Of a stretch of DNA of 37,772 nt, positions 4,854-35,015 are shown in pieces (the stretch's first letter is position 1; each line of letters begins with the position of its first letter). The position numbers and the translations under genes are program-made. This DNA is from a virus. Its lineage: Duplodnaviria; Heunggongvirae; Uroviricota; Caudoviricetes. Location of the stretch: the IMG/VR virus record IMGVR_UViG_2563366960_000009, positions 1 through 37,772 of that record; one strand, 5' to 3'. The notes beneath the pieces are model-generated. The model saw only the letters and a program-made list of their open reading frames with translations. It was not told the origin of the DNA and ran no database searches.

Positions 4854-5680
4854 AGAAATTCAAACTCTTTCAGATTCTCCCGCTTTTTGCCGCCATCCTG
4901 CTGGTTGGTTGCGATCGCGTTGAGCCAGGTAATGTGGGCATCAAAGTCAACAAACTGGGCGACGACAAAGGCGTCGGTGAAGTGGTTGGCGTTGGCCGCT
5001 ACTGGACAGGCTGGAATACAGAGGTTTACATCTTCCCGACCTTCAAACAAATGAAGACTTACGATGAGCCGTTCAACTTCCAGATGAGTGACGGCACAAC
5101 CATCGGCTATCACATCGGCGTGGCCTACAAAGTTGATCCATCCAAAGTTACCACGGTGTTTCAGACCTACCGCAAAGGCGTGGACGACATTACCGACACT
5201 GACCTGCGCCAGAAGATCGCCGATGCACTCAACCGACTGGCCAGCAAAATGACCACCGATAAGTTTATCGACGGTGGTAAGTCTGAACTGCTGGATTCAG
5301 CACTTAAAGATATTCAGGAAGAGATGACCCCCATCGGTATTCAGGTCATGAGCCTCTCTTATGTCGGTAAACCGGAATATCCGCCAACCGTTATCGACAG
5401 CATTAACGCCAAAGTCACGGCAAACCAGAAAACCCTGCAACGCGAACAGGAAGTCAAGCAACGCGAAGCAGAAGCCAACATGTTGCGCGCAGAAGCTGCC
5501 GGACAGGCCGATGCCATTCGCACAAAAGCCCAGGCTGAAGCCGACGCCATTCGTTTACGCGGCGAAGCTCTGCGCCAGAATCCCGGTGTTATGGAGCTGG
5601 AAGCGATCAACAAATGGAACGGCACGCTGCCGCAATACATGACCAGTAACACCGCTGTTCCGTTCGTTCCCGTGAAGTAA
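4850..5680 (+). CDS. SPFH/band-7 (prohibitin/stomatin-like) lipoprotein
   Basis: 276 aa. N-terminal signal peptide with lipobox LLVGC. C-terminal Ala/Glu/Arg/Gln-rich coiled-coil (QREQEVKQREAEANMLRAEAAGQADAIRTKAQAEADAIRLRGEALRQNP) typical of SPFH proteins. Confidence 0.7.
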   Translation: MKKFKLFQILPLFAAILLVGCDRVEPGNVGIKVNKLGDDKGVGEVVGVGRYWTGWNTEVYIFPTFKQMKTYDEPFNFQMSDGTTIGYHIGVAYKVDPSKVTTVFQTYRKGVDDITDTDLRQKIADALNRLASKMTTDKFIDGGKSELLDSALKDIQEEMTPIGIQVMSLSYVGKPEYPPTVIDSINAKVTANQKTLQREQEVKQREAEANMLRAEAAGQADAIRTKAQAEADAIRLRGEALRQNPGVMELEAINKWNGTLPQYMTSNTAVPFVPVK

Positions 5681-9621: not shown

Positions 9622-10581
9622 ATGAAAATTTGTATCGACGACGGCTCCACCAACATCAAGCTGGCATGGACTGAGAACGGCGAACACCGCAACGCCATCA
9701 GCCCGAACAGCTTCAAGTCGGAATGGTCTGCGCCGTTCGGTGGCTCGCAGCCTGCGAACTACATGCTTGATGGCGTGCGCTATGGTTTTGATCCGGTCAG
9801 CGATCGCTTTGTCCAGACGACCGACACGCAATACCAGTACAGCGATGTGAATGTAATCGCCATTCACCACGCGCTGGTCAAATCAGGCATCACGCCACAG
9901 GAGGTGGATGTGGTTGTCACCCTGCCACTGAGCGAGTATTTCGACACAAACGCCCAGCCGGATATGACCAACATCAACCGCAAAAAAGCGAACGTTATGC
10001 GCCCGGTGGAGTATCAGAACAGTGAGGCATTCACTATCCGTAACGTGCGGGTTATGCCTGAATCCATTCCGGCTGGCTTTAAAGCACTGGCTGACATGAG
10101 TCCGTTTGAATCCCTGCTGATTGTGGATTTGGGCGGAACCACGCTGGATGTGGCAAAGGTTCAGGGGCAACTGGCAGGTATCAGCCAGGTGTTTTGCGAT
10201 CCACACGTAGGCGTTTCTCTGATGGCCGATGCCGTGCTGTCGGTGATGGCCACCAACGGTATGCGCACCAGTCACCACATCGCCAATACCATTATCGAAC
10301 ATCGCCACGATGAAGCCTGGCTGCGCCAGCACATCCACAATGACGCGCATTACGCCAGCCTGATGGCAGTTATTCGTGAAAAGGAGGAAACACTGAAACA
10401 ACGCGTGATCCGCGCGCTGGCGGGTTTTTCGGGTTACGGGCGGGTGATGGTTGTAGGTGGAGGAGCGGAGATTGTGGCACCCGCTATCCGCGAAGCCTGC
10501 GGAGTTAATGCGACTTTCATCGCGGACGGGGTGCCACAATTTGCTCTGGTTAATGGGCTGTACGCAATGGACAAGGAGTAA
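9622..10581 (+). CDS. parM: ParM/StbA-like actin-family partition ATPase
   Basis: 319 aa. N-terminus MKICIDDGSTNIKLAW closely resembles plasmid R1 ParM (..FIDDGSTNIKLQW, from memory); later LLIVDLGGTTLDV and VMVVGGGAEIV match actin-fold phosphate-binding motifs. Confidence 0.8.
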   Translation: MKICIDDGSTNIKLAWTENGEHRNAISPNSFKSEWSAPFGGSQPANYMLDGVRYGFDPVSDRFVQTTDTQYQYSDVNVIAIHHALVKSGITPQEVDVVVTLPLSEYFDTNAQPDMTNINRKKANVMRPVEYQNSEAFTIRNVRVMPESIPAGFKALADMSPFESLLIVDLGGTTLDVAKVQGQLAGISQVFCDPHVGVSLMADAVLSVMATNGMRTSHHIANTIIEHRHDEAWLRQHIHNDAHYASLMAVIREKEETLKQRVIRALAGFSGYGRVMVVGGGAEIVAPAIREACGVNATFIADGVPQFALVNGLYAMDKE

Positions 10582-10585
10582 ATCA

Positions 10586-10897
10586 ATGACGACACCAACC
10601 AGACGGATAAGTTTCTATCTGAAGCCCGCCGCCGTCAAGAACGAAGGTGAAGCATGCGCCTGGCTGGACAGCCTTACACCAGAAGCGCGCAAAAGCGGCC
10701 AACGCGTGGCTTTTCTGGCCGGGCTGGCACTTCTGAAAATGAATCCGGCAGAGGCTTACCGACTGGCTGCATGGGCTGATGATGAAGCGTTATCAGTGAC
10801 ACAAACCAGGACAGAACGCCCCGCGTCACAGCCAGTATCAACCGCACAGATAACCAGTCAGATGGCCGGAAATATCCGGGCGTTATTTCCCGAATAA
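10586..10897 (+). CDS. parR: ParR-like centromere-binding adaptor
   Basis: 103 aa directly after parM. RRISFYLKP...LDSLTPEARKSGQRVAFLAGLALL and the C-terminal NIRALFPE align by eye with R1 ParR (RRTIAFKLNP...LDSIPQGERSRLNRAALTAGLALY...LRSLFPKE, from memory). Confidence 0.7.
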   Translation: MTTPTRRISFYLKPAAVKNEGEACAWLDSLTPEARKSGQRVAFLAGLALLKMNPAEAYRLAAWADDEALSVTQTRTERPASQPVSTAQITSQMAGNIRALFPE

Positions 10898-10960: not shown

Positions 10961-11296
10961 ATGCAACGCATTGACAGAGAAAAAGCGCAGCGACTGATTG
11001 AGCGGATGGAAGCGCTGGCGAAAGAAGAAAATGTCAACATCCAAAAAATAGCTGAATGTGGCCAGATAGTTCTTCGTCGTGAAAAAGACCTCAAACAACT
11101 GATGTCTGGCGAAACCAGCAAAACATGGACTTCAGGTGAGGAGACGATTTATTGCAGCTTCTGCAATAAATCCCAGTACGAAGTCACAAAGGTGATTGCC
11201 GGACCGTCTGTTTACATCTGCAATGAGTGCGTTGATTTGTGCAATGAAGTTATCAGGAGAGAAGTGACAGACCATGAAGAAAAAACGCATGAATGA
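10961..11296 (+). CDS. Small protein carrying a ClpX-type N-terminal C4 zinc-binding domain and no AAA+ module
   Basis: 111 aa. Residues about 64-100, [35 protein letters not shown], closely match the ClpX zinc-binding domain consensus (CxxC...CxxC). N-terminal half is a predicted helical region. Confidence 0.7.
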
Positions 11297-11462
11297 CGAA
11301 TTTGACGGCTTTTAATTTTATCGGGGCGCACTGTCGCCCTGCATGGAGAAAAACAATAAAAAAGATGAATAACTGCTCATGTCAGACGCGCTGCGGGCAA
11401 GTCTGGCACCCTGCCCTGTCTCCGCAAAGGCTGTTGTCTTAACACGACAGAGTATGCCAGCA

Positions 11463-11870
11463 TTAAATATAATCTTCTTCGTAGTCGCTGATTAATTCAT
11501 TGCCATAATCAGACAGCAATTTCAAAGCAAAGGTAACTTCCTCAAGGGTAGCTATCCCCATTGCTGAAAACACCGTTAATTTAACCAGCAGCAGGGAGTT
11601 TGAAAGTTCGGAAGAGTTCATCATTAAAAATATTGATGCAGCCTGAAAAGCTGTGCGTTTATTCCCATCATGAAAGGCATGAGCCTTGGCTATACCAATC
11701 AAATACATAGCAGCCAGAGCATGAATATCATCAACCCCTTCATAGTAGTGTAGTGTCCTGACGCGATTTAAAGCACCTTCAAGTAGCCCGTCATTGGCAT
11801 TTCCGCTCTGGGGTAAAGTTTCAGCATGGATACGTTCTACTTGTTCTTTTGACAAAAACACTATGTCCAT
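11463..11870 (-). CDS. doc: Doc-family (Fic fold) toxin
   Basis: 135 aa with the Doc motif HAFHDGNKRTA (HxFx[DN]GNKR); start overlaps the stop of the upstream antitoxin (ATGA). Confidence 0.8.
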   Translation of the reverse strand: MDIVFLSKEQVERIHAETLPQSGNANDGLLEGALNRVRTLHYYEGVDDIHALAAMYLIGIAKAHAFHDGNKRTAFQAASIFLMMNSSELSNSLLLVKLTVFSAMGIATLEEVTFALKLLSDYGNELISDYEEDYI

Positions 11871-12226
11871 CAGTTATCCTCAAGCTTTTTAATGATATCC
11901 GCATGTTTTTCTCTTGTACGCTTCATTGCATCTTCAAAAGACAATCCTTTTTTTCTCTGTGCGACAAGAGCTGGATGACGTTTTTCCAGATCTCTCACTG
12001 CATTTATTAAGAGTGGTTGCTTCATTTTGTTTATTTGATCCCGCAGTTTTTTGGTTTTGCCAAGGACAGCCCGTATTTCAGGACTAAGATCAGAACCAGC
12101 AAGAACAACATCCTTCCCTCCCTGCGCCGTGATAACGACACTGCCACCGGAAGAAAGGTAATCCAGAATTTCACTCAGGTTCTCACGAAATTCATCATCA
12201 GTTACAGTTTTCATATTCATTTCCAT
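11870..12226 (-). CDS. phd: Phd/YefM-like antitoxin
   Basis: 118 aa immediately upstream of and translationally coupled to doc; N-terminal region is consistent with a Phd/YefM fold. Confidence 0.65.
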   Translation of the reverse strand: MEMNMKTVTDDEFRENLSEILDYLSSGGSVVITAQGGKDVVLAGSDLSPEIRAVLGKTKKLRDQINKMKQPLLINAVRDLEKRHPALVAQRKKGLSFEDAMKRTREKHADIIKKLEDN

Positions 12227-12288
12227 TATGCACGCCCATAACGTAAGTATAACGGCTTGTTGGGCAGTAATAACACCGCCATATTTTC

Positions 12289-12326
12289 ATTTTATACACC
12301 GCACAATAGTGCACAAATTTGCACAA
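12289..12326 (-). promoter_or_regulatory. Putative phd-doc promoter/operator: three GCACAA (TTGTGC on the coding strand) repeats at exact 10-bp spacing, next to a TATAAA-like -10
   Basis: Plus strand gcacaatagtgcacaaatttgcacaa at 12301..12326; includes GTGCAC palindromes; about 70 bp upstream of the phd start. Confidence 0.45.
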
Positions 12327-12422
12327 TTTTTTTGAACAACTTTTTACCCTTCCGGCCCGCGTGGCGACTGGATCCGTCAAGGATCCGTGCGTGCACAAAA
12401 AAACGCGCTTTTTCTGCGCGCA

Positions 12423-12471
12423 GGTGACGGGGGAACAGCCCGCGTTTCAGGGGGTAAATAGCATCCCCTGA
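12423..12471. other. Putative cos / terminase recognition region
   Basis: ggtgacgggggaacagcc resembles the G-rich P2/186 cohesive-end sequence as I recall it, followed by an 8-bp inverted repeat ttcagggg...cccctgaa. It sits between the hotspot and portal gene Q, where cos lies in P2 prophages. Confidence 0.3.
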
Positions 12472-12692
12472 ACGATGTCGCAGCGACACAACAGAATGGC
12501 TGTATTTCTCACGCTGAGCGTGAAAAAGACGTGAGGGCTTTTGATTTGATGGGGTGAAAGGTAAGGCCGTCAAAATCGCACTGAGACGGCGAGAACATGC
12601 AGTCAACGCGGTGGGATTGCGTAAGAGTCTGACTGTCGATGATGGCAATAAGCAGGAAAGCGTCGTGAAATTATCTGATTGATACAGGAGCT

Positions 12693-12716
12693 GGAGAGTC
12701 GGGGCATAAATTTTTT
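12693..12716 (-). terminator. Stem-loop downstream of Q (ggggcat-aaatttttt-atgcccc); possible terminator of the Q-P operon
   Basis: 7-bp perfect stem read directly; lies about 35 bp after the Q stop on the minus strand. Confidence 0.3.
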
Positions 12717-12750
12717 ATGCCCCGGCGAAGCAGCAGACAAGCGAAGCGCG

Positions 12751-13797
12751 TCAGGATGTGGGCTGGGTGTCTAACAGTGCGTAAGGGTTAAAGCGGATCA
12801 CCTCTTCGCCAAGCCAGTCATTGATGTGCTTTATGGCCTCCATGACAGGCATCAGCTCGTTAATTGCGTAAACCCGCGCGGCCTTCTCCACATCGCCAAA
12901 CGCACTTTTTTCGCCCGGCATCGCCCCCATCAGTTGCGGCGGAACGCGGTGCGCAGCCAGCACATCATCACGGGATGCCGCCTTAACATTCATGAACTCA
13001 TCCTTTGCGGTGATCTGATGGAACGGCAAAATTTGCACCCCCTCTTTGCCCCCGTTGGGCGCATGGATGAGCACGTTTTTAAACGCACCACCACCACGCG
13101 CACCCTGTAACGTTTCTTTCAGGGAGTCCATGCTTTCGCGGTTTACCTGCGCTGCACCGATGTAGATGATGCACCCGGCGTGGGATCCATTGTCGTAATA
13201 CAGTTTTCTGAACATGTCCGCCGAATGAGACAGGCTGGCCGAGAGTAATGCGCCAAGATATTCCGGCATGCCGTAAATTTCCTGGTTAATGTCCGGATTC
13301 ATCAGGTGGCACACTTTGCCAGGGCGAAACTGAAACGCGTCCTTGCCATCCTGCACATACCACCATGATTCAAGATCGCTTCCGCGTCGCATGTATTTCG
13401 CCAGTGCGTGCCGTAATTTAAGTGGTTCGCCGAGCATATTGCTCCGAAGCTCAAGGAATGCGTTACCGAACACAAACCAGTCCAGCGCCAGCGCCGAGAA
13501 ATCCTGCCGGGAAAGCAGCGGGTGCGGGATGTAGCAACCGAGCAATACATTGCGCTTAAAGTAAAGCGCAGACTGATGCCAGGACGTTTGCCGGGCAGCT
13601 CTTGCCAGACCGTACCAGTCCACCGGGGTTTCATACCACCGCCCGTTATCAGCACAGTACATATTGTCCAGCAGGTCATGCCCGGTCAGGCGATAAGGAC
13701 CATCAAATGTGAATGCACTGAGCGATGATTCTTTCCTGAGCGCATCAGCGAGATCAATGCGTGAACTCATGCGCACTTTTTTATTTTTTCTGCTCAT
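12751..13797 (-). CDS. Portal protein (P2 gpQ-like)
   Basis: 348 aa (P2 Q is about 344 aa); leftward with P as in P2; ATGA overlap with P. Confidence 0.85.
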   Translation of the reverse strand: MSRKNKKVRMSSRIDLADALRKESSLSAFTFDGPYRLTGHDLLDNMYCADNGRWYETPVDWYGLARAARQTSWHQSALYFKRNVLLGCYIPHPLLSRQDFSALALDWFVFGNAFLELRSNMLGEPLKLRHALAKYMRRGSDLESWWYVQDGKDAFQFRPGKVCHLMNPDINQEIYGMPEYLGALLSASLSHSADMFRKLYYDNGSHAGCIIYIGAAQVNRESMDSLKETLQGARGGGAFKNVLIHAPNGGKEGVQILPFHQITAKDEFMNVKAASRDDVLAAHRVPPQLMGAMPGEKSAFGDVEKAARVYAINELMPVMEAIKHINDWLGEEVIRFNPYALLDTQPTS

Positions 13798-17660: not shown

Positions 17661-18461
17661 ATGATTACTCCTGCACAACAACACTGGCAGAACGTGATGG
17701 CACAGCGCGCAGGTCGGGCGAATGAAGGCGTGGACCACGCCGCGCGTACCGCGCATGAAGAGGTGCTGTATCGTCTGCGTCTGGCACAGGCCCGGCTTAA
17801 GGGCGTACAGGCCAGAAGCGCGAAAGCCGCCATCAAAAAAGAGTTGTTGCCGGATTTTTCCGGCTGGATTGAGGGAACGCTGGAGGCTGACGGCGGGCAG
17901 CAGGATGAAGTGATTGCCACGCTGATGGTGTGGGCGATTGACTGCGGCGATCTTCCGCTTGCGTTGCGTATTGGTGCGTATGTGGTCCGTCATAACCTCA
18001 TTATGCCGGATAACTTTGGCCGTACTGCTGCCACGGTACTGACCGAAGAAATCTGCAACCCGGTACTGACGCAGGCCGGGACGGATGCTGACGCGGATTT
18101 GTCCGCCTTTATCGAACCACTGGACACCCTCCGGGAGATTGTCACAGACCAGGACATGCCGGACGAAGTGCGCGCCAAATTATGCAAGGCGTGCGCCTTT
18201 GCCCGTCGTGGTCTGACCGATGCGGACAGCATGGCCCTGTCACTGAAGCTGCTGCGCGAAGCGATGCACCTGAACCCGAACGCAGGTGTGAAACGCGAGA
18301 TTGCAACCCTTTTCCGCACCCTGAAAAAAGCCGATTCCGCAGCCGCACCAGAAGACGCCAGCACACCGCAGGCGCAGGACGAAAGCAGCAAAAGTAAAAA
18401 GACAACGCGGAAGCCTGCAACACGAAAAACCACCGCGACGCAGAAGGCGAAGCGCGGTTAA
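17661..18461 (+). CDS. Terminase small subunit (P2 gpM-like)
   Basis: 266 aa; MPDEVRAKL and AGVKREI match recalled P2 M; basic C-terminal tail. Confidence 0.8.
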   Translation: MITPAQQHWQNVMAQRAGRANEGVDHAARTAHEEVLYRLRLAQARLKGVQARSAKAAIKKELLPDFSGWIEGTLEADGGQQDEVIATLMVWAIDCGDLPLALRIGAYVVRHNLIMPDNFGRTAATVLTEEICNPVLTQAGTDADADLSAFIEPLDTLREIVTDQDMPDEVRAKLCKACAFARRGLTDADSMALSLKLLREAMHLNPNAGVKREIATLFRTLKKADSAAAPEDASTPQAQDESSKSKKTTRKPATRKTTATQKAKRG

Positions 18462-33272: not shown

Positions 33273-34382
33273 ATGACCGATACCACCATGCAATTGCTCA
33301 GTCAGGGCACAGACCCCGTGAAAATGCCGGATTTTGATATTCTCGCGGAGGGTAAAACGCTGTCAGGCGTGGCAGAGCGCCTGATGAGCCTGTCACTGAC
33401 CGACAACCGGGGATTTGACGCGGACCAGCTCACCATCACGCTGGATGATGCGGATGGTCAGTTGCAGCTACCGCCACGGGGCGCGCGCCTGACGGTTCTC
33501 ATTGGCTGGAAAGGAGAACCGCTGACAGAAAAAGGCACTTACATTGTTGATGAAATCGCTCACGAAGGACCGCCGGACAGGCTGACTGTTTCAGCCAGAA
33601 GCGCAGATTTTCGGGATGAATTTAACGTTAAACGTGAGGTGTCCTGGCATGATGTGACCGTTGAGCGTGTGGTATCCGCCATCGCTCATCGGTATGGTCT
33701 GAAACCGCAAATCAGCGAAATGCTGATTGATATCGAAATCGACCACGCCGACCAGACCGAAGAAAGCGACATATCCTTCCTTACGCGCATGGCGGAAATG
33801 CTGGGCGCAATCACCACGGTAAAAAGCGGCAATCTGTTATTCATCATGCCAGGTGGTGGCGTGAACGCACAGGGCCAGCCGTTGCCCTCATTCGCCATTA
33901 CACGCAGCAGCGGCGATCGCCATCAGTTCCGCATTGCTGACCGCGAGGCGTATACGGGGGTACGCGCCTACTGGCTTGATCTTAATTACGGGAAAAAGAA
34001 AAAAGTCAGCGTGAAACGCCGTAAACCGCCAAAACCCAAAAAGGAGAAAAGCAGCAGCCGTGAAGGTGATTATATGGAAGGCGCGGAAGGCAATGTGTTT
34101 GTGTTACGCAAGACTTATCAGAACGAGCAGGCAGCAAGACGCGCAGCGGCGGCAAAGTGGCAGCAACTACAACGCGGAGCCGCATCATTCTCCATCACGC
34201 TGGCGCGTGGACGTGCAGAACTCTACCCCGAAATGCATGGCACGGTAACAGGATTTAAAAGCGAGATTGATAATCAGGACTGGATCATTGCAAAAGCCGA
34301 GCACACCATTGATAATAGCGGCTTTACCACGCAGCTTGAGCTTGAGGCAAAAATCCCGGAATGGATAGCGGAAACAGAGTGA
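33273..34382 (+). CDS. Tail protein D-like (late gene D)
   Basis: ATG at 33273 with GGGAGG site (the longer track ORF from 33141 is Pro/Arg-rich and lacks a site); about 370 aa; followed by ogr as in P2. Confidence 0.8.
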   Translation: MTDTTMQLLSQGTDPVKMPDFDILAEGKTLSGVAERLMSLSLTDNRGFDADQLTITLDDADGQLQLPPRGARLTVLIGWKGEPLTEKGTYIVDEIAHEGPPDRLTVSARSADFRDEFNVKREVSWHDVTVERVVSAIAHRYGLKPQISEMLIDIEIDHADQTEESDISFLTRMAEMLGAITTVKSGNLLFIMPGGGVNAQGQPLPSFAITRSSGDRHQFRIADREAYTGVRAYWLDLNYGKKKKVSVKRRKPPKPKKEKSSSREGDYMEGAEGNVFVLRKTYQNEQAARRAAAAKWQQLQRGAASFSITLARGRAELYPEMHGTVTGFKSEIDNQDWIIAKAEHTIDNSGFTTQLELEAKIPEWIAETE

Positions 34383-34771: not shown

Positions 34772-34957
34772 ATGTGGAAAGGCCCCGAGTCAACTTTAAC
34801 GTTAACCCGAGGCCCTAACCATCTACCCTTAGCAAGTGATAGGTTAGCGCCTCCCCGAAAAAGGAGCAAGCGCTATGTCGCAAAAATCGCTTACGGCCAT
34901 CACATTCTGCGTGACGGCAATCCTCATCATCTGGATGCTGCACGGTTCGCTGTGTGA
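34772..34957 (+). CDS. Possible mok-like overlapping reading frame of a hok-type locus
   Basis: 61-aa ORF starting about 100 bp upstream of the hok-like ATG and overlapping it in a different frame, as in hok/mok/sok loci. The protein itself has no recognisable features. Confidence 0.3.
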   Translation: MWKGPESTLTLTRGPNHLPLASDRLAPPRKRSKRYVAKIAYGHHILRDGNPHHLDAARFAV

Positions 34958-35015
34958 AATACGGATGAGCTTCTGGGGAGCGGAGTTTGCGGCGTTCTTA
35001 CAGTGTAAGCAGTAA
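34875..35015 (+). CDS. Hok/Gef-family type I toxin peptide
   Basis: 46 aa, below the ORF-track cutoff: MSQKSLTAITFCVTAILIIWMLHGSLCEIRMSFWGAEFAAFLQCKQ. N-terminal TM helix and the SLCEIR...AAF signature shared with Hok; AAGGAG site upstream. Confidence 0.6.
   Translation: MSQKSLTAITFCVTAILIIWMLHGSLCEIRMSFWGAEFAAFLQCKQ

Follow-up and report, generated by a model that had tools for sequence, protein, structure and literature searches.

We consider it likely that the locus is an ordinary two-gene Phd/Doc-type type II toxin-antitoxin pair, carried as hotspot cargo by a P88-like prophage, and that the three phased TTGTGC repeats beside it are phage backbone, probably concerned with packaging. The window, meaning the whole 37,772-nucleotide stretch of DNA analysed here, had received a first-pass annotation in which these repeats were the operator of the antitoxin; that claim arose because a backbone element of the phage was read as cargo, and it did not survive comparison with other genomes. 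Judged by sequence comparison, the prophage is integrated and P88-like (Xuanwuvirus, P2 family), and the pair is exchangeable cargo (about 11324–12300) in its cos-proximal hotspot. It is correctly annotated in RefSeq, and both the arrangement and the hotspot have already been described.

The toxin gene doc (11463–11870, minus strand) encodes a protein of 135 amino acids (RefSeq WP_001561009.1). The product matched the Pfam family Fic/DOC PF02661 (E 3.5e-11, 44.2 bits against a cutoff of 24), TIGR01550 DOC_P1 (53.6 bits, cutoff 38.65) and the Doc-like toxins of phrog_577 (E 2.9e-26), together with the P1 Doc structures 3k33, 3dd7 and 3kh2 (E 6e-13), and comparison with P1 Doc gave 35% identity (E 3e-18). 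The motif HAFHDGNKR had been called intact, and the translation bears this out: the catalytic residues run from H64 through AFHDGN to K71 and R72 (HxFxDxNKR; encoded at 11681–11655, minus strand) and align with HIFNDANKR of P1 Doc. The protein has the Doc-type active-site motif HxFx(D/N)(A/G)NKR, with Lys at the position of the Gly in AMPylating Fic proteins. From its family, Doc would be a Fic-fold kinase that phosphorylates EF-Tu and stops translation, as P1 Doc does.

The Phd-like antitoxin gene (11870–12214, minus strand; RefSeq WP_001561011.1, with the start called by PGAP) encodes 114 amino acids. The earlier statement that the antitoxin is longer than P1 Phd holds, whereas the length of 118 amino acids given for it is that of the longest open reading frame (12226–11870). 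The third ATG, at 12214 (MKTVTD), is the RefSeq start and also the start in most homologues, and residue 1 of P1 Phd aligns to the Met encoded there; translation most likely begins at this codon, giving the 114-residue form.

RefSeq names the protein a Phd/YefM family antitoxin, and it matched the Phd-like family phrog_375. Against profile models its scores fell short of the cutoffs, narrowly so with 29.2 bits for residues 5–42 and PhdYeFM PF02604 (gathering cutoff 29.8), and with 16.6 bits for TIGR01552 (cutoff 20.8). The AlphaFold2 (AF2) model had a pLDDT of about 74–86 over residues 1–50; a Foldseek search of this model against the PDB ranked P1 Phd and YefM best, and its N-terminus superposed on the DNA-binding domain of P1 Phd (4zlx_A) with an rmsd of 0.8 Å over 39 columns at 33% identity. 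At the sequence level, the N-terminal domain was 34% identical to P1 Phd over 38 amino acids. In BLASTP and phmmer comparisons with P1 Phd the alignment was confined to residues 5–45, leaving the Doc-binding helix unmatched, and a sequence search of the PDB with the antitoxin gave coiled-coil noise and, at E about 1, weak matches to the N-terminus of Phd. The C-terminal 73 amino acids found three related cluster representatives in all among 1.84 billion; by these searches the C-terminal ~70 residues are an orphan sequence, restricted to a tiny Enterobacterales lineage. The final 24 residues (LSFEDAMKRTREKHA.IIK.LEDN) are invariant among the homologues. The Phd-fold N-terminal domain would thus provide dimerisation and DNA binding, the lineage-specific region of ~70 amino acids is predicted to be helical, and the invariance of the last 24 residues suggests that these most likely bind and neutralise Doc. 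An antitoxin built of a Phd-fold domain and an orphan, predicted neutralisation domain would add one more variant to the known modes of Doc inhibition.

The family and structure matches agree with the earlier reading of the locus as a Phd/Doc-type pair with overlapping genes. The TGA stop of the antitoxin gene and the ATG of doc overlap by one base at 11870 (TGATG), indicating that the two genes are co-expressed. The module's own promoter most likely lies within the cargo, with a −10 element TATACT at 12251–12246 inside a module-proximal block, CGTTATACTTACG (12242–12254, minus strand), that is conserved in nine of nine pair-carrying loci. This upstream alignment comprised at least six named genera and two sequences without genus assignment; the −10 block appears in it as TATACT, TATATT, TATAAT and TACATT, with T1, A2 and T6 kept. 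The −35 proposed for the promoter is weak. The best-conserved upstream columns of the nine loci form another block, GGTGTTATTACTG (12265–12277, minus strand), which may be the −35 region and/or a candidate antitoxin binding site, and the two blocks, 21 bp apart, have a GTTAT(T)AC core in common. From their conservation, the blocks at 12242–12277 are the best operator candidates; we call them candidates and not the operator because the search for a palindrome common to the nine loci found no convincing one in them. A sigma-70 consensus scan of the minus strand from 11250 to 12760 reported no promoter, that with TATACT included.

Between these blocks and the repeats lies a variable junction of cargo and backbone (12278–12300, minus strand), poorly conserved even in pair-carrying loci. 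It contains the −10-like element that had been described beside the repeats, a TATAAA at 12296–12291 that begins 4 bp past the third repeat; the element is present and is unconserved among the pair-carrying loci. A sigma-70 promoter using the repeats or TATAAA was considered and rejected, as the scan gave no match and manual inspection gave poor spacings.

The placement of the pair in a prophage hotspot was confirmed: the site is the variable hotspot already known from P2-like phages, which adjoins cos and has the replication gene A (gpA) to one side and the portal gene Q (gpQ) to the other. P88, Chuche, 569R5 and Shae_phiSM carry other genes in the position of the pair, and the content varies among otherwise near-identical phages; old and tin of P2 are cargo of the same hotspot. 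The exact gene arrangement with WP_001561011 is already in Table S5A of Rousset et al. 2022. That table counts ParM/StbB in the locus, whereas ParM/StbB is semi-conserved in P88-like phages. A second, canonical Phd/Doc pair was found in the same hotspot, bringing to two the independent Phd/Doc lineages present there. The neighbouring gene for a ClpX zinc-finger protein was discarded as an obligate partner of the pair: it is absent from at least three other pair loci and occurs in P88 without the pair. Among the pair loci that were checked, it was seen in the window and in locus L024 only.

The repeats themselves are as first described. Three copies of TTGTGC, read on the minus strand (GCACAA on the plus strand), lie at exactly 10-bp spacing in 12301–12326 (12326–12321, 12316–12311 and 12306–12301), and the window has this triple pattern once, where shuffles gave an expectation of 0.01. 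The hexamer by itself is not enriched (27 observed, 36 expected). Reading of the sequence revealed a fourth copy, TTGTGCAC, at 12391–12398 (minus strand), on the far side of the putative cos core, which the first-pass annotation did not have. An A7/T7 tract (12327–12333) touches the first repeat and belongs to the backbone. It is conserved in an alignment with phages carrying other cargo (A1) and nearly invariant in an alignment of the window with P88, a PS3T phage and a satellite-like element (A2), where three of the four elements have seven T and the satellite-like element has six T followed by A. The sequence GTGCACAAAAAA is invariant in all four members of A2.

To follow the repeats beyond the pair, we compared them across phages and prophages. 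P88, Chuche, 569R5 and Shae_phiSM have them in invariant form despite unrelated cargo (alignment A1), and homology to the phages with other cargo stops exactly at the third repeat, at 12300/12301; nearly all of 40 listed E. coli alignments, sampled across the ranking, begin at 12301. Of 5,426 complete E. coli genomes, about 1,137 had the 135-bp flank containing the repeats and 20 had the toxin-antitoxin pair. A pattern scan of IMG/VR gave 120 matches; about 30 of these, being 10-bp tandem (iteron-like) repeats of other viruses without relation to the present ones, were excluded. The exact triple repeat was present in 85 IMG/VR contigs, one of which carries this pair. In these 85 contigs the distance from the repeats to the portal gene was 350–430 bp, or about 1,050 bp in six with an insertion, and the portals near the repeats were 68–99% identical, against 31–97% for gpA. 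A divergent P2-like phage and the satellite-like element have the repeats as well. Conversely, in the Serratia, Symbiopectobacterium and GCA_902845405 loci (two to three of nine) they are degenerate or partly deleted and the pair is still present. Because they are independent of the cargo, lie in so many more genomes than the pair, stand beside diverged portals and recur in the satellite-like element, the three repeats are phage backbone flanking cos and not part of the toxin-antitoxin module. Ten loci carry this lineage of the pair, namely the window, eight homologous loci and one identical IMG/VR contig; since in all ten the pair is the first gene past the repeats, in the same orientation, it may be functionally coupled to the repeat flank in some way.

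The other side of the repeats has the features of a cos region. A putative cos core, or cleavage region, can be placed approximately at 12345–12390; the repeats are on one side of it and the terminator of the terminase-portal (P-Q) operon on the other, which is also the position of cos in P2. P88_4B11 (LR595891) is a linear record whose break falls between the bases equivalent to 12344 and 12345, 18 bp past the first repeat, and the central region differs among the elements that have the repeats (A2). The intrinsic terminator, flagged by the terminator scan at 12403–12421 (minus strand; GCGCGC-AGAAAAA-GCGCGT, then T7), corresponds in position to tQ of P2. The satellite-like element, L011, keeps all four repeat copies at 77% overall identity, and these copies and a right-hand block are invariant both there and in the divergent P2-like phage; no portal or terminase gene was found in the stretch of L011 that was examined, and we class it as satellite-like from gene content alone. 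The genome search returned twenty further flank matches at 60–80% identity. The small terminase subunit gpM, encoded at 17661–18461, is 59% identical to gpM of the PS3T phage, which has the same repeats, and 36% identical to gpM of P2, where the motif is TGCAT. Across A1, A2 and the IMG/VR contigs, conservation of the repeats follows the packaging module, whatever the modules for cargo and replication. By analogy with known cos regions, the repeats with the fourth copy and the phased A/T tracts are most likely part of a packaging signal for the terminase (small subunit gpM).

Other functions for the repeats were weighed against packaging. As the operator of phd/doc, they would be bound cooperatively on one helix face by antitoxin dimers, with or without Doc, which would repress a promoter at TATAAA. 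The repeats do exist and are no chance pattern, all ten loci of this lineage have them upstream of the operon, and the middle copy, TTGTGCAC, resembles the P1 operator half-site TTGTGTACAC. We nevertheless regard this reading as very improbable, given that more than 1,100 E. coli prophages, as well as phages lacking the pair, have the repeats in invariant form, that the satellite-like element has them too, and that they have decayed in the pair-carrying loci of Serratia, Symbiopectobacterium and GCA_902845405. Moreover, TATAAA is unconserved among the pair loci, whereas the module-proximal block is kept in nine of nine; the repeats are direct and lie about 50–80 bp upstream of the conserved −10, whereas Phd binds promoter-overlapping palindromes; and the canonical Phd/Doc pair in the same hotspot is oriented so that about 700 bp separate its promoter from the repeats.

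The backbone could also supply a transcriptional element, either an UP/−35 region or a site for a phage or host regulator, to any cargo reading away from cos, a role that would be compatible with packaging. In P2, the third ATGCAA repeat overlaps the likely −35, and the mapped starts of the old-tin mRNA are 27–29 bp downstream of that repeat; TATAAAATG stands 4 bp past the third repeat in both P2 and the window; and cargo genes beside the repeats often read away from cos. A TGT-N12-ACT within the repeats, which we take to resemble the Ogr-type dyad TGT-N12-ACA, was counted on the same side. This function seems unlikely, however, in view of P4 and 186, where the repeats follow psu or a terminator and have no gene reading leftward from them, away from cos, and of P88 and 569R5, whose adjacent cargo is on the opposite strand. 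Within 785 bp leftward of the repeats in the satellite-like element, unannotated small ORFs (at most 67 amino acids) alone read leftward; the sequence just past the third repeat is unconserved, and the sigma-70 consensus scan gave no match there. A plus-strand rho-independent terminator (GTGCA-N6-TGCAC, then T7), halting transcription of the early operon or cargo before cos, has less still to recommend it and is in our estimate extremely unlikely. The terminator scan does flag 12309–12324 followed by AATTTTTTTG, the T7 run is (nearly) invariant, and the t95b terminator of 186 shortly precedes the repeats of that phage. Yet the hairpin has 5 bp and an energy of −6.1 kcal/mol (z −1.4), which 18 of 200 shuffled sequences at least equalled; a match by 9% of shuffles led us to reject the terminator as the main explanation. 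It would also leave the three phased copies and the fourth copy across cos unexplained, and the repeats of P2, P4 and 186 have no such hairpin. Packaging remains our preferred function for the repeats.

What the pair does for the prophage is more tentative. It could act in anti-phage abortive infection, in which host shutoff or antitoxin loss would free Doc and translation would be arrested before the phage cycle ends; prophage addiction or retention is the alternative. The two independent Phd/Doc lineages in the hotspot are consistent with defence, as are the weak matches of Fic-domain proteins to the candidate defence models PDC-S23 and PDC-M59B. Retention or selfish persistence explains the data equally well, though, and PADLOC gave no system-level match for the pair and none for the antitoxin; the arrangement was listed, not tested, by Rousset et al. 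2022, and a literature search for Phd/Doc in phage defence found no specific paper. We hold abortive infection to be possible but somewhat doubtful, and speculate that the role in the hotspot is exclusion of other phages, prophage retention, or both. The occurrence of this Phd/Doc lineage beside cos in 10 of 10 loci, from six named genera, may reflect specialisation for that site in P2-like prophages. There is perhaps a slight chance that the orphan C-terminal domain is a sensor of phage or packaging activity, or that the TTGTGC repeats are a further binding site of the antitoxin, so that Doc release or the exclusion of cos-sharing P2-like phages and satellites would be coupled to packaging or superinfection.

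As found, with a known pair in a known hotspot, the locus matters little; the boundary and the variant antitoxin are modest by-products. The right-hand boundary of the hotspot in P88-like phages is placed to the base (12300/12301), which aids delimitation of cargo, design of cos vectors and recognition of satellites. If the pair defends against phage, Doc kinases would join the list of abortive-infection effectors.

The pair in the window and that of P1 are alike in having the antitoxin gene before the toxin gene, the same 1-nt TGATG overlap and a Doc with conserved HxFxDxNKR. Each is carried by a temperate phage, which for P1 is a plasmid prophage and for the window an integrated P2-like prophage. 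The antitoxins differ in length (114 amino acids in the window, 73 in P1 Phd), and the two palindromes that P1 has between the −10 and the Shine-Dalgarno site are without a counterpart in the window. P1 Phd-type repressors use palindromes beside or overlapping the promoter −10, in contrast to the direct repeats of the window, which lie 60–85 bp upstream.

The repeats compare more closely with the cos regions of P2 relatives, for which the P2/P4 literature states a "55-bp conserved cos". P2, P4 and 186 have three (T/G/A)TGCAT repeats, 10–13 bp apart, to the left of cos. As in the window, the three repeats are direct, contain a TGCA core, stand on the side of cos that faces gene A and the hotspot, and are conserved between elements that have only the packaging system in common. 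The motif differs (GCACAA/TGCACAA in the window, TGCAT in P2, P4 and 186), as does the distance from the repeats to the end, which is about 20–45 bp to the putative end in the window and 90–140 bp in the others, and the fourth copy across cos is a feature of the window, unlike P2, P4 and 186. In lambda, cosB and cosQ likewise have short repeated sites and phased A/T tracts beside the nicking site, conserved with the terminase lineage; the likeness of the window repeats to these is by analogy alone. The phased repeats thus look like a lineage-specific packaging signal that parallels the TGCAT repeats of P2, P4 and 186.

The doc gene and the antitoxin gene upstream of it are cargo of a P2-family prophage that is integrated beside pdxB; the window was 100% identical to E. 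coli BCE049 across the 1.4 kb searched. Its genes run in the order integrase, repressor, Cox, replication endonuclease A, ParM, StbB, ClpX zinc-finger protein, doc, antitoxin, a non-coding region, portal Q, and terminase P. The interval from A to Q is the published cos-proximal hotspot of P2-like phages, occupied in P2 by tin and old and followed by cos. In P88, Chuche, 569R5, and Shae_phiSM, all close relatives, it holds unrelated genes. The Phd/Doc arrangement of the window was already catalogued by Rousset et al. (2022); Phd had no match in the further supplementary files consulted from that study, so the pair was apparently not among the systems tested. A second Phd/Doc pair (L037, 8101-8765, and also L091), with a canonical Phd of ~73 aa and a 127-aa Doc (motif HIFNDGNKR, 42% identical to the window Doc), occupies the same hotspot in other P2-like phages; it is oriented the opposite way, and its end lies 74 bp from the TTGTGC repeats discussed below. 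Cargo at the cos-proximal site thus includes Doc pairs recurrently.

The doc ORF (11870..11463, minus strand) encodes 135 aa. In profile searches Doc scored above the cutoffs of the Fic/DOC and DOC_P1 models, and it matched P1 Doc structures (E 6e-13). Alignment to P1 Doc (35% identity) confirmed that all HxFxDxNKR residues of the motif, previously described as intact, are present (H64-AFHDGNKR-72). The two genes overlap: the doc ATG and the antitoxin TGA share one base (TGATG), exactly as in P1 phd/doc. The longest antitoxin ORF (12226..11870, minus strand) does encode the 118 aa attributed to it; the most likely start is instead the third ATG at 12214, giving 114 aa, because the RefSeq call, the start of most homologues, and the alignment of P1 Phd residue 1 all agree on this position, and one homologue lacks the upstream ATG. 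Antitoxin residues 5-42 matched the PhdYeFM model at 29.2 bits, marginally below the gathering score of 29.8, as well as a Phd-like PHROG. The best PDB matches of the N-terminus were P1 Phd and YefM, and 4zlx_A superposed on it with an rmsd of 0.8 A over 39 columns. The C-terminal ~70 residues are predicted, at lower confidence, to be helical; no similarity was found between them and the Doc-binding C-terminus of P1 Phd, and among 1.84 billion cluster representatives, scanned in full with HMMER, only three entries were related. The antitoxin family is small (16 proteins with at least 53% identity, Enterobacterales only), and its final 24 residues are almost invariant, for which reason they are proposed as the neutralizing segment. 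RefSeq names the two genes Phd/YefM antitoxin and death-on-curing toxin. The locus is a genuine Phd/Doc pair, annotated and catalogued before, with a divergent antitoxin C-terminus.

Three TTGTGC repeats at exactly 10-bp spacing (12326-12321, 12316-12311, and 12306-12301, minus strand) are present as the first-pass annotation described, and the composite pattern occurs once in the window against 0.01 expected by chance; the hexamer on its own is not enriched there. TATAAA lies 4 bp past the third repeat, and doc, the antitoxin gene, the repeats, and TATAAA are all on the minus strand. The repeats had been read as the antitoxin operator. In a megablast comparison, homology to every P88-like phage begins at window 12298-12301, and in an alignment with four phages carrying different cargo the three repeats are invariant, as are the A7 tract and all sequence to the portal gene, and similarity ends directly past the third repeat. 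Among 5,426 complete E. coli genomes, 1,147 matched a 135-bp query (12296-12430), and in 1,137 the match covered at least 80% of the query. Of 40 listed alignments drawn from across the ranking, nearly all begin at query base 6 (window 12301); the pair is present in just 20 complete E. coli genomes. At least 120 IMG/VR contigs contain the exact triple repeat. A portal homologue (68-99% identity) lies on the same side and in the same orientation in 85 of these, at a near-constant 350-430 bp (~1,050 bp with an insertion). In the 85, gpA identity ranges from 31% to 97%, and the pair occurs in one contig; ~30 others of the 120 matches are unrelated tandem 10-mers of other viruses.

Nine loci with homologues of the pair, the window included, were compared (E. 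coli, Enterobacter, Klebsiella, Citrobacter, Symbiopectobacterium, Serratia, Edwardsiella, and two others). In the Serratia and GCA_902845405 loci the middle repeat is degenerate, and in the Symbiopectobacterium locus it is deleted; TATAAA, a -10-like element in the window, is not conserved among the nine. Invariant in phages with other cargo, and with the middle copy degenerate or deleted in three loci that carry the pair, the repeats belong to the phage backbone and not to the toxin-antitoxin module; the supposed three-repeat operator of an already annotated and catalogued pair is a misattributed backbone element flanking the putative cos. Two gene-proximal blocks, GGTGTTATTACTG (12277-12265, minus strand) and CGTTATACTTACG (12254-12242, minus strand), are kept in 9/9 loci, and the latter includes a -10-like hexamer (TATACT, TATATT, TATAAT, or TACATT) that retains the critical positions. 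From this conservation we place the module promoter and a candidate operator at these blocks. The P1 Phd operator is a palindrome pair between the -10 and the ribosome-binding site; no palindrome common to the nine loci was found in the two blocks. The promoter of the canonical, oppositely oriented Phd/Doc pair of this hotspot lies ~700 bp from the repeats.

As a member of its family, the window Doc would be a kinase that targets EF-Tu for phosphorylation and arrests translation. A dimer of the antitoxin, presumably co-expressed with doc given the TGATG overlap, is predicted to neutralize Doc through its C-terminal segment and would repress the operon through its Phd-fold N-terminus at putative sites near the operon's own -10. 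The pair could serve abortive infection or exclusion, like much other cargo at the site, or could equally serve selfish retention; PADLOC matched the Fic domain only weakly, and to candidate systems, and a literature search found no report of Phd/Doc-based phage defense.

Convergent with doc, a gene at 10961-11296 (+) encodes a 111-aa protein made up almost entirely of a C4 zinc finger of the ClpX type (PF06689, E 3e-17; phrog_6797, function unknown). This variable cargo, also in P88 and L024, is missing from three or more of the remaining pair-bearing loci (all but four were checked) and is not an obligate partner. Since P1 Phd is a ClpXP substrate, a free ClpX N-domain beside the pair could modulate antitoxin turnover. 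A ParM (StbA) and StbB/ParR-like plasmid partition pair (9622-10897, +), a segregation system of the actin type that is semi-conserved among P88-like phages, resides in this chromosomally integrated prophage; 1,320 of 1,321 cos-flank matches in E. coli are chromosomal. Just past ogr at the far prophage end, a Hok/Gef family type I toxin gene (~34874-35014, +; NZ_CP042250.1 3467133-3467273) forms a second toxin module. A small pseudogene fragment precedes the gpD-equivalent tail gene (~33528-34381), itself annotated as a short 266-aa VgrG/Pvc8-family protein; tail assembly may be defective in this prophage.

Reading the minus strand, the portal gene is followed by a good intrinsic terminator (12421-12403), a fourth copy TTGTGCAC (12398-12391), a GC-rich region, an A/T tract, and the three repeats; in P2, the equivalent position, bounded by the tQ terminator and old, is that of cos. 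The linear GenBank record of P88_4B11 breaks 18 bp from the first repeat, at the junction corresponding to 12344/12345, and this may be the physical genome end. The putative cos core contains a direct and inverted repeat, GGATCC-GTCAA-GGATCC (12359-12385, +), shared with P88 and replaced by unrelated sequence in two elements that share the flanking repeats. These are a divergent P2-like prophage of E. coli PS3T (TerL 78%, gpM 59% identical) and a ~9-kb satellite-like element beside hpt in E. coli DLI.6n (NZ_CP103974.1 4029038-4039167). The latter encodes a toprim primase, an integrase, an Ogr/Delta zinc finger, a 423-aa P2-family major capsid protein, and MazEF; neither a portal nor a terminase gene is annotated in the 10 kb examined. 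Its cos-like flank (5001-5130 of that stretch) is of the P88 type and has the full set of four TTGTGC copies. All four copies and a right-hand block are invariant in both elements, and the center varies. Another 20 E. coli records match this P88-type flank at just 60-80% identity and may be similar elements.

From their position, their conservation outside P88-like phages, and the parallel with P2, P4, and 186, we infer that the repeats are part of the packaging signal. A backbone promoter or UP element is an unlikely alternative reading: the mapped P2 old-tin transcription starts, 27-29 bp past the third P2 repeat, lend it some support; against it, the repeats of P4 and 186 have no gene reading leftward from them, away from cos. 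A plus-strand terminator was rejected as the main explanation, its hairpin being weak. The pair is the first gene past the repeats, in the same orientation, in 10/10 loci found with its lineage, across genera and at protein identities as low as 53%. This placement is most simply read as long residence of the pair and its co-divergence with the phage head module; a functional link between the pair and cos has a low probability.

The window repeats have parallels in known phages. P2 (L007, 4453-4482), P4 (L009, 11500-11530), and 186 (L017, 2502-2532) each carry three (T/G/A)TGCAT repeats 10-13 bp apart, 90-140 bp left of the cohesive ends (measured from the right cohesive end), with a further TGCAT adjoining the conserved cos core. 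P2 and P4 reportedly lack general homology except for the 55-bp cos site. After the third repeat, P2 has CGAC-TATAAAATG and the window has GGTG-TATAAAATG. The terminase small subunits (gpM) of the two share only 36% identity, which is consistent with a different recognition motif.
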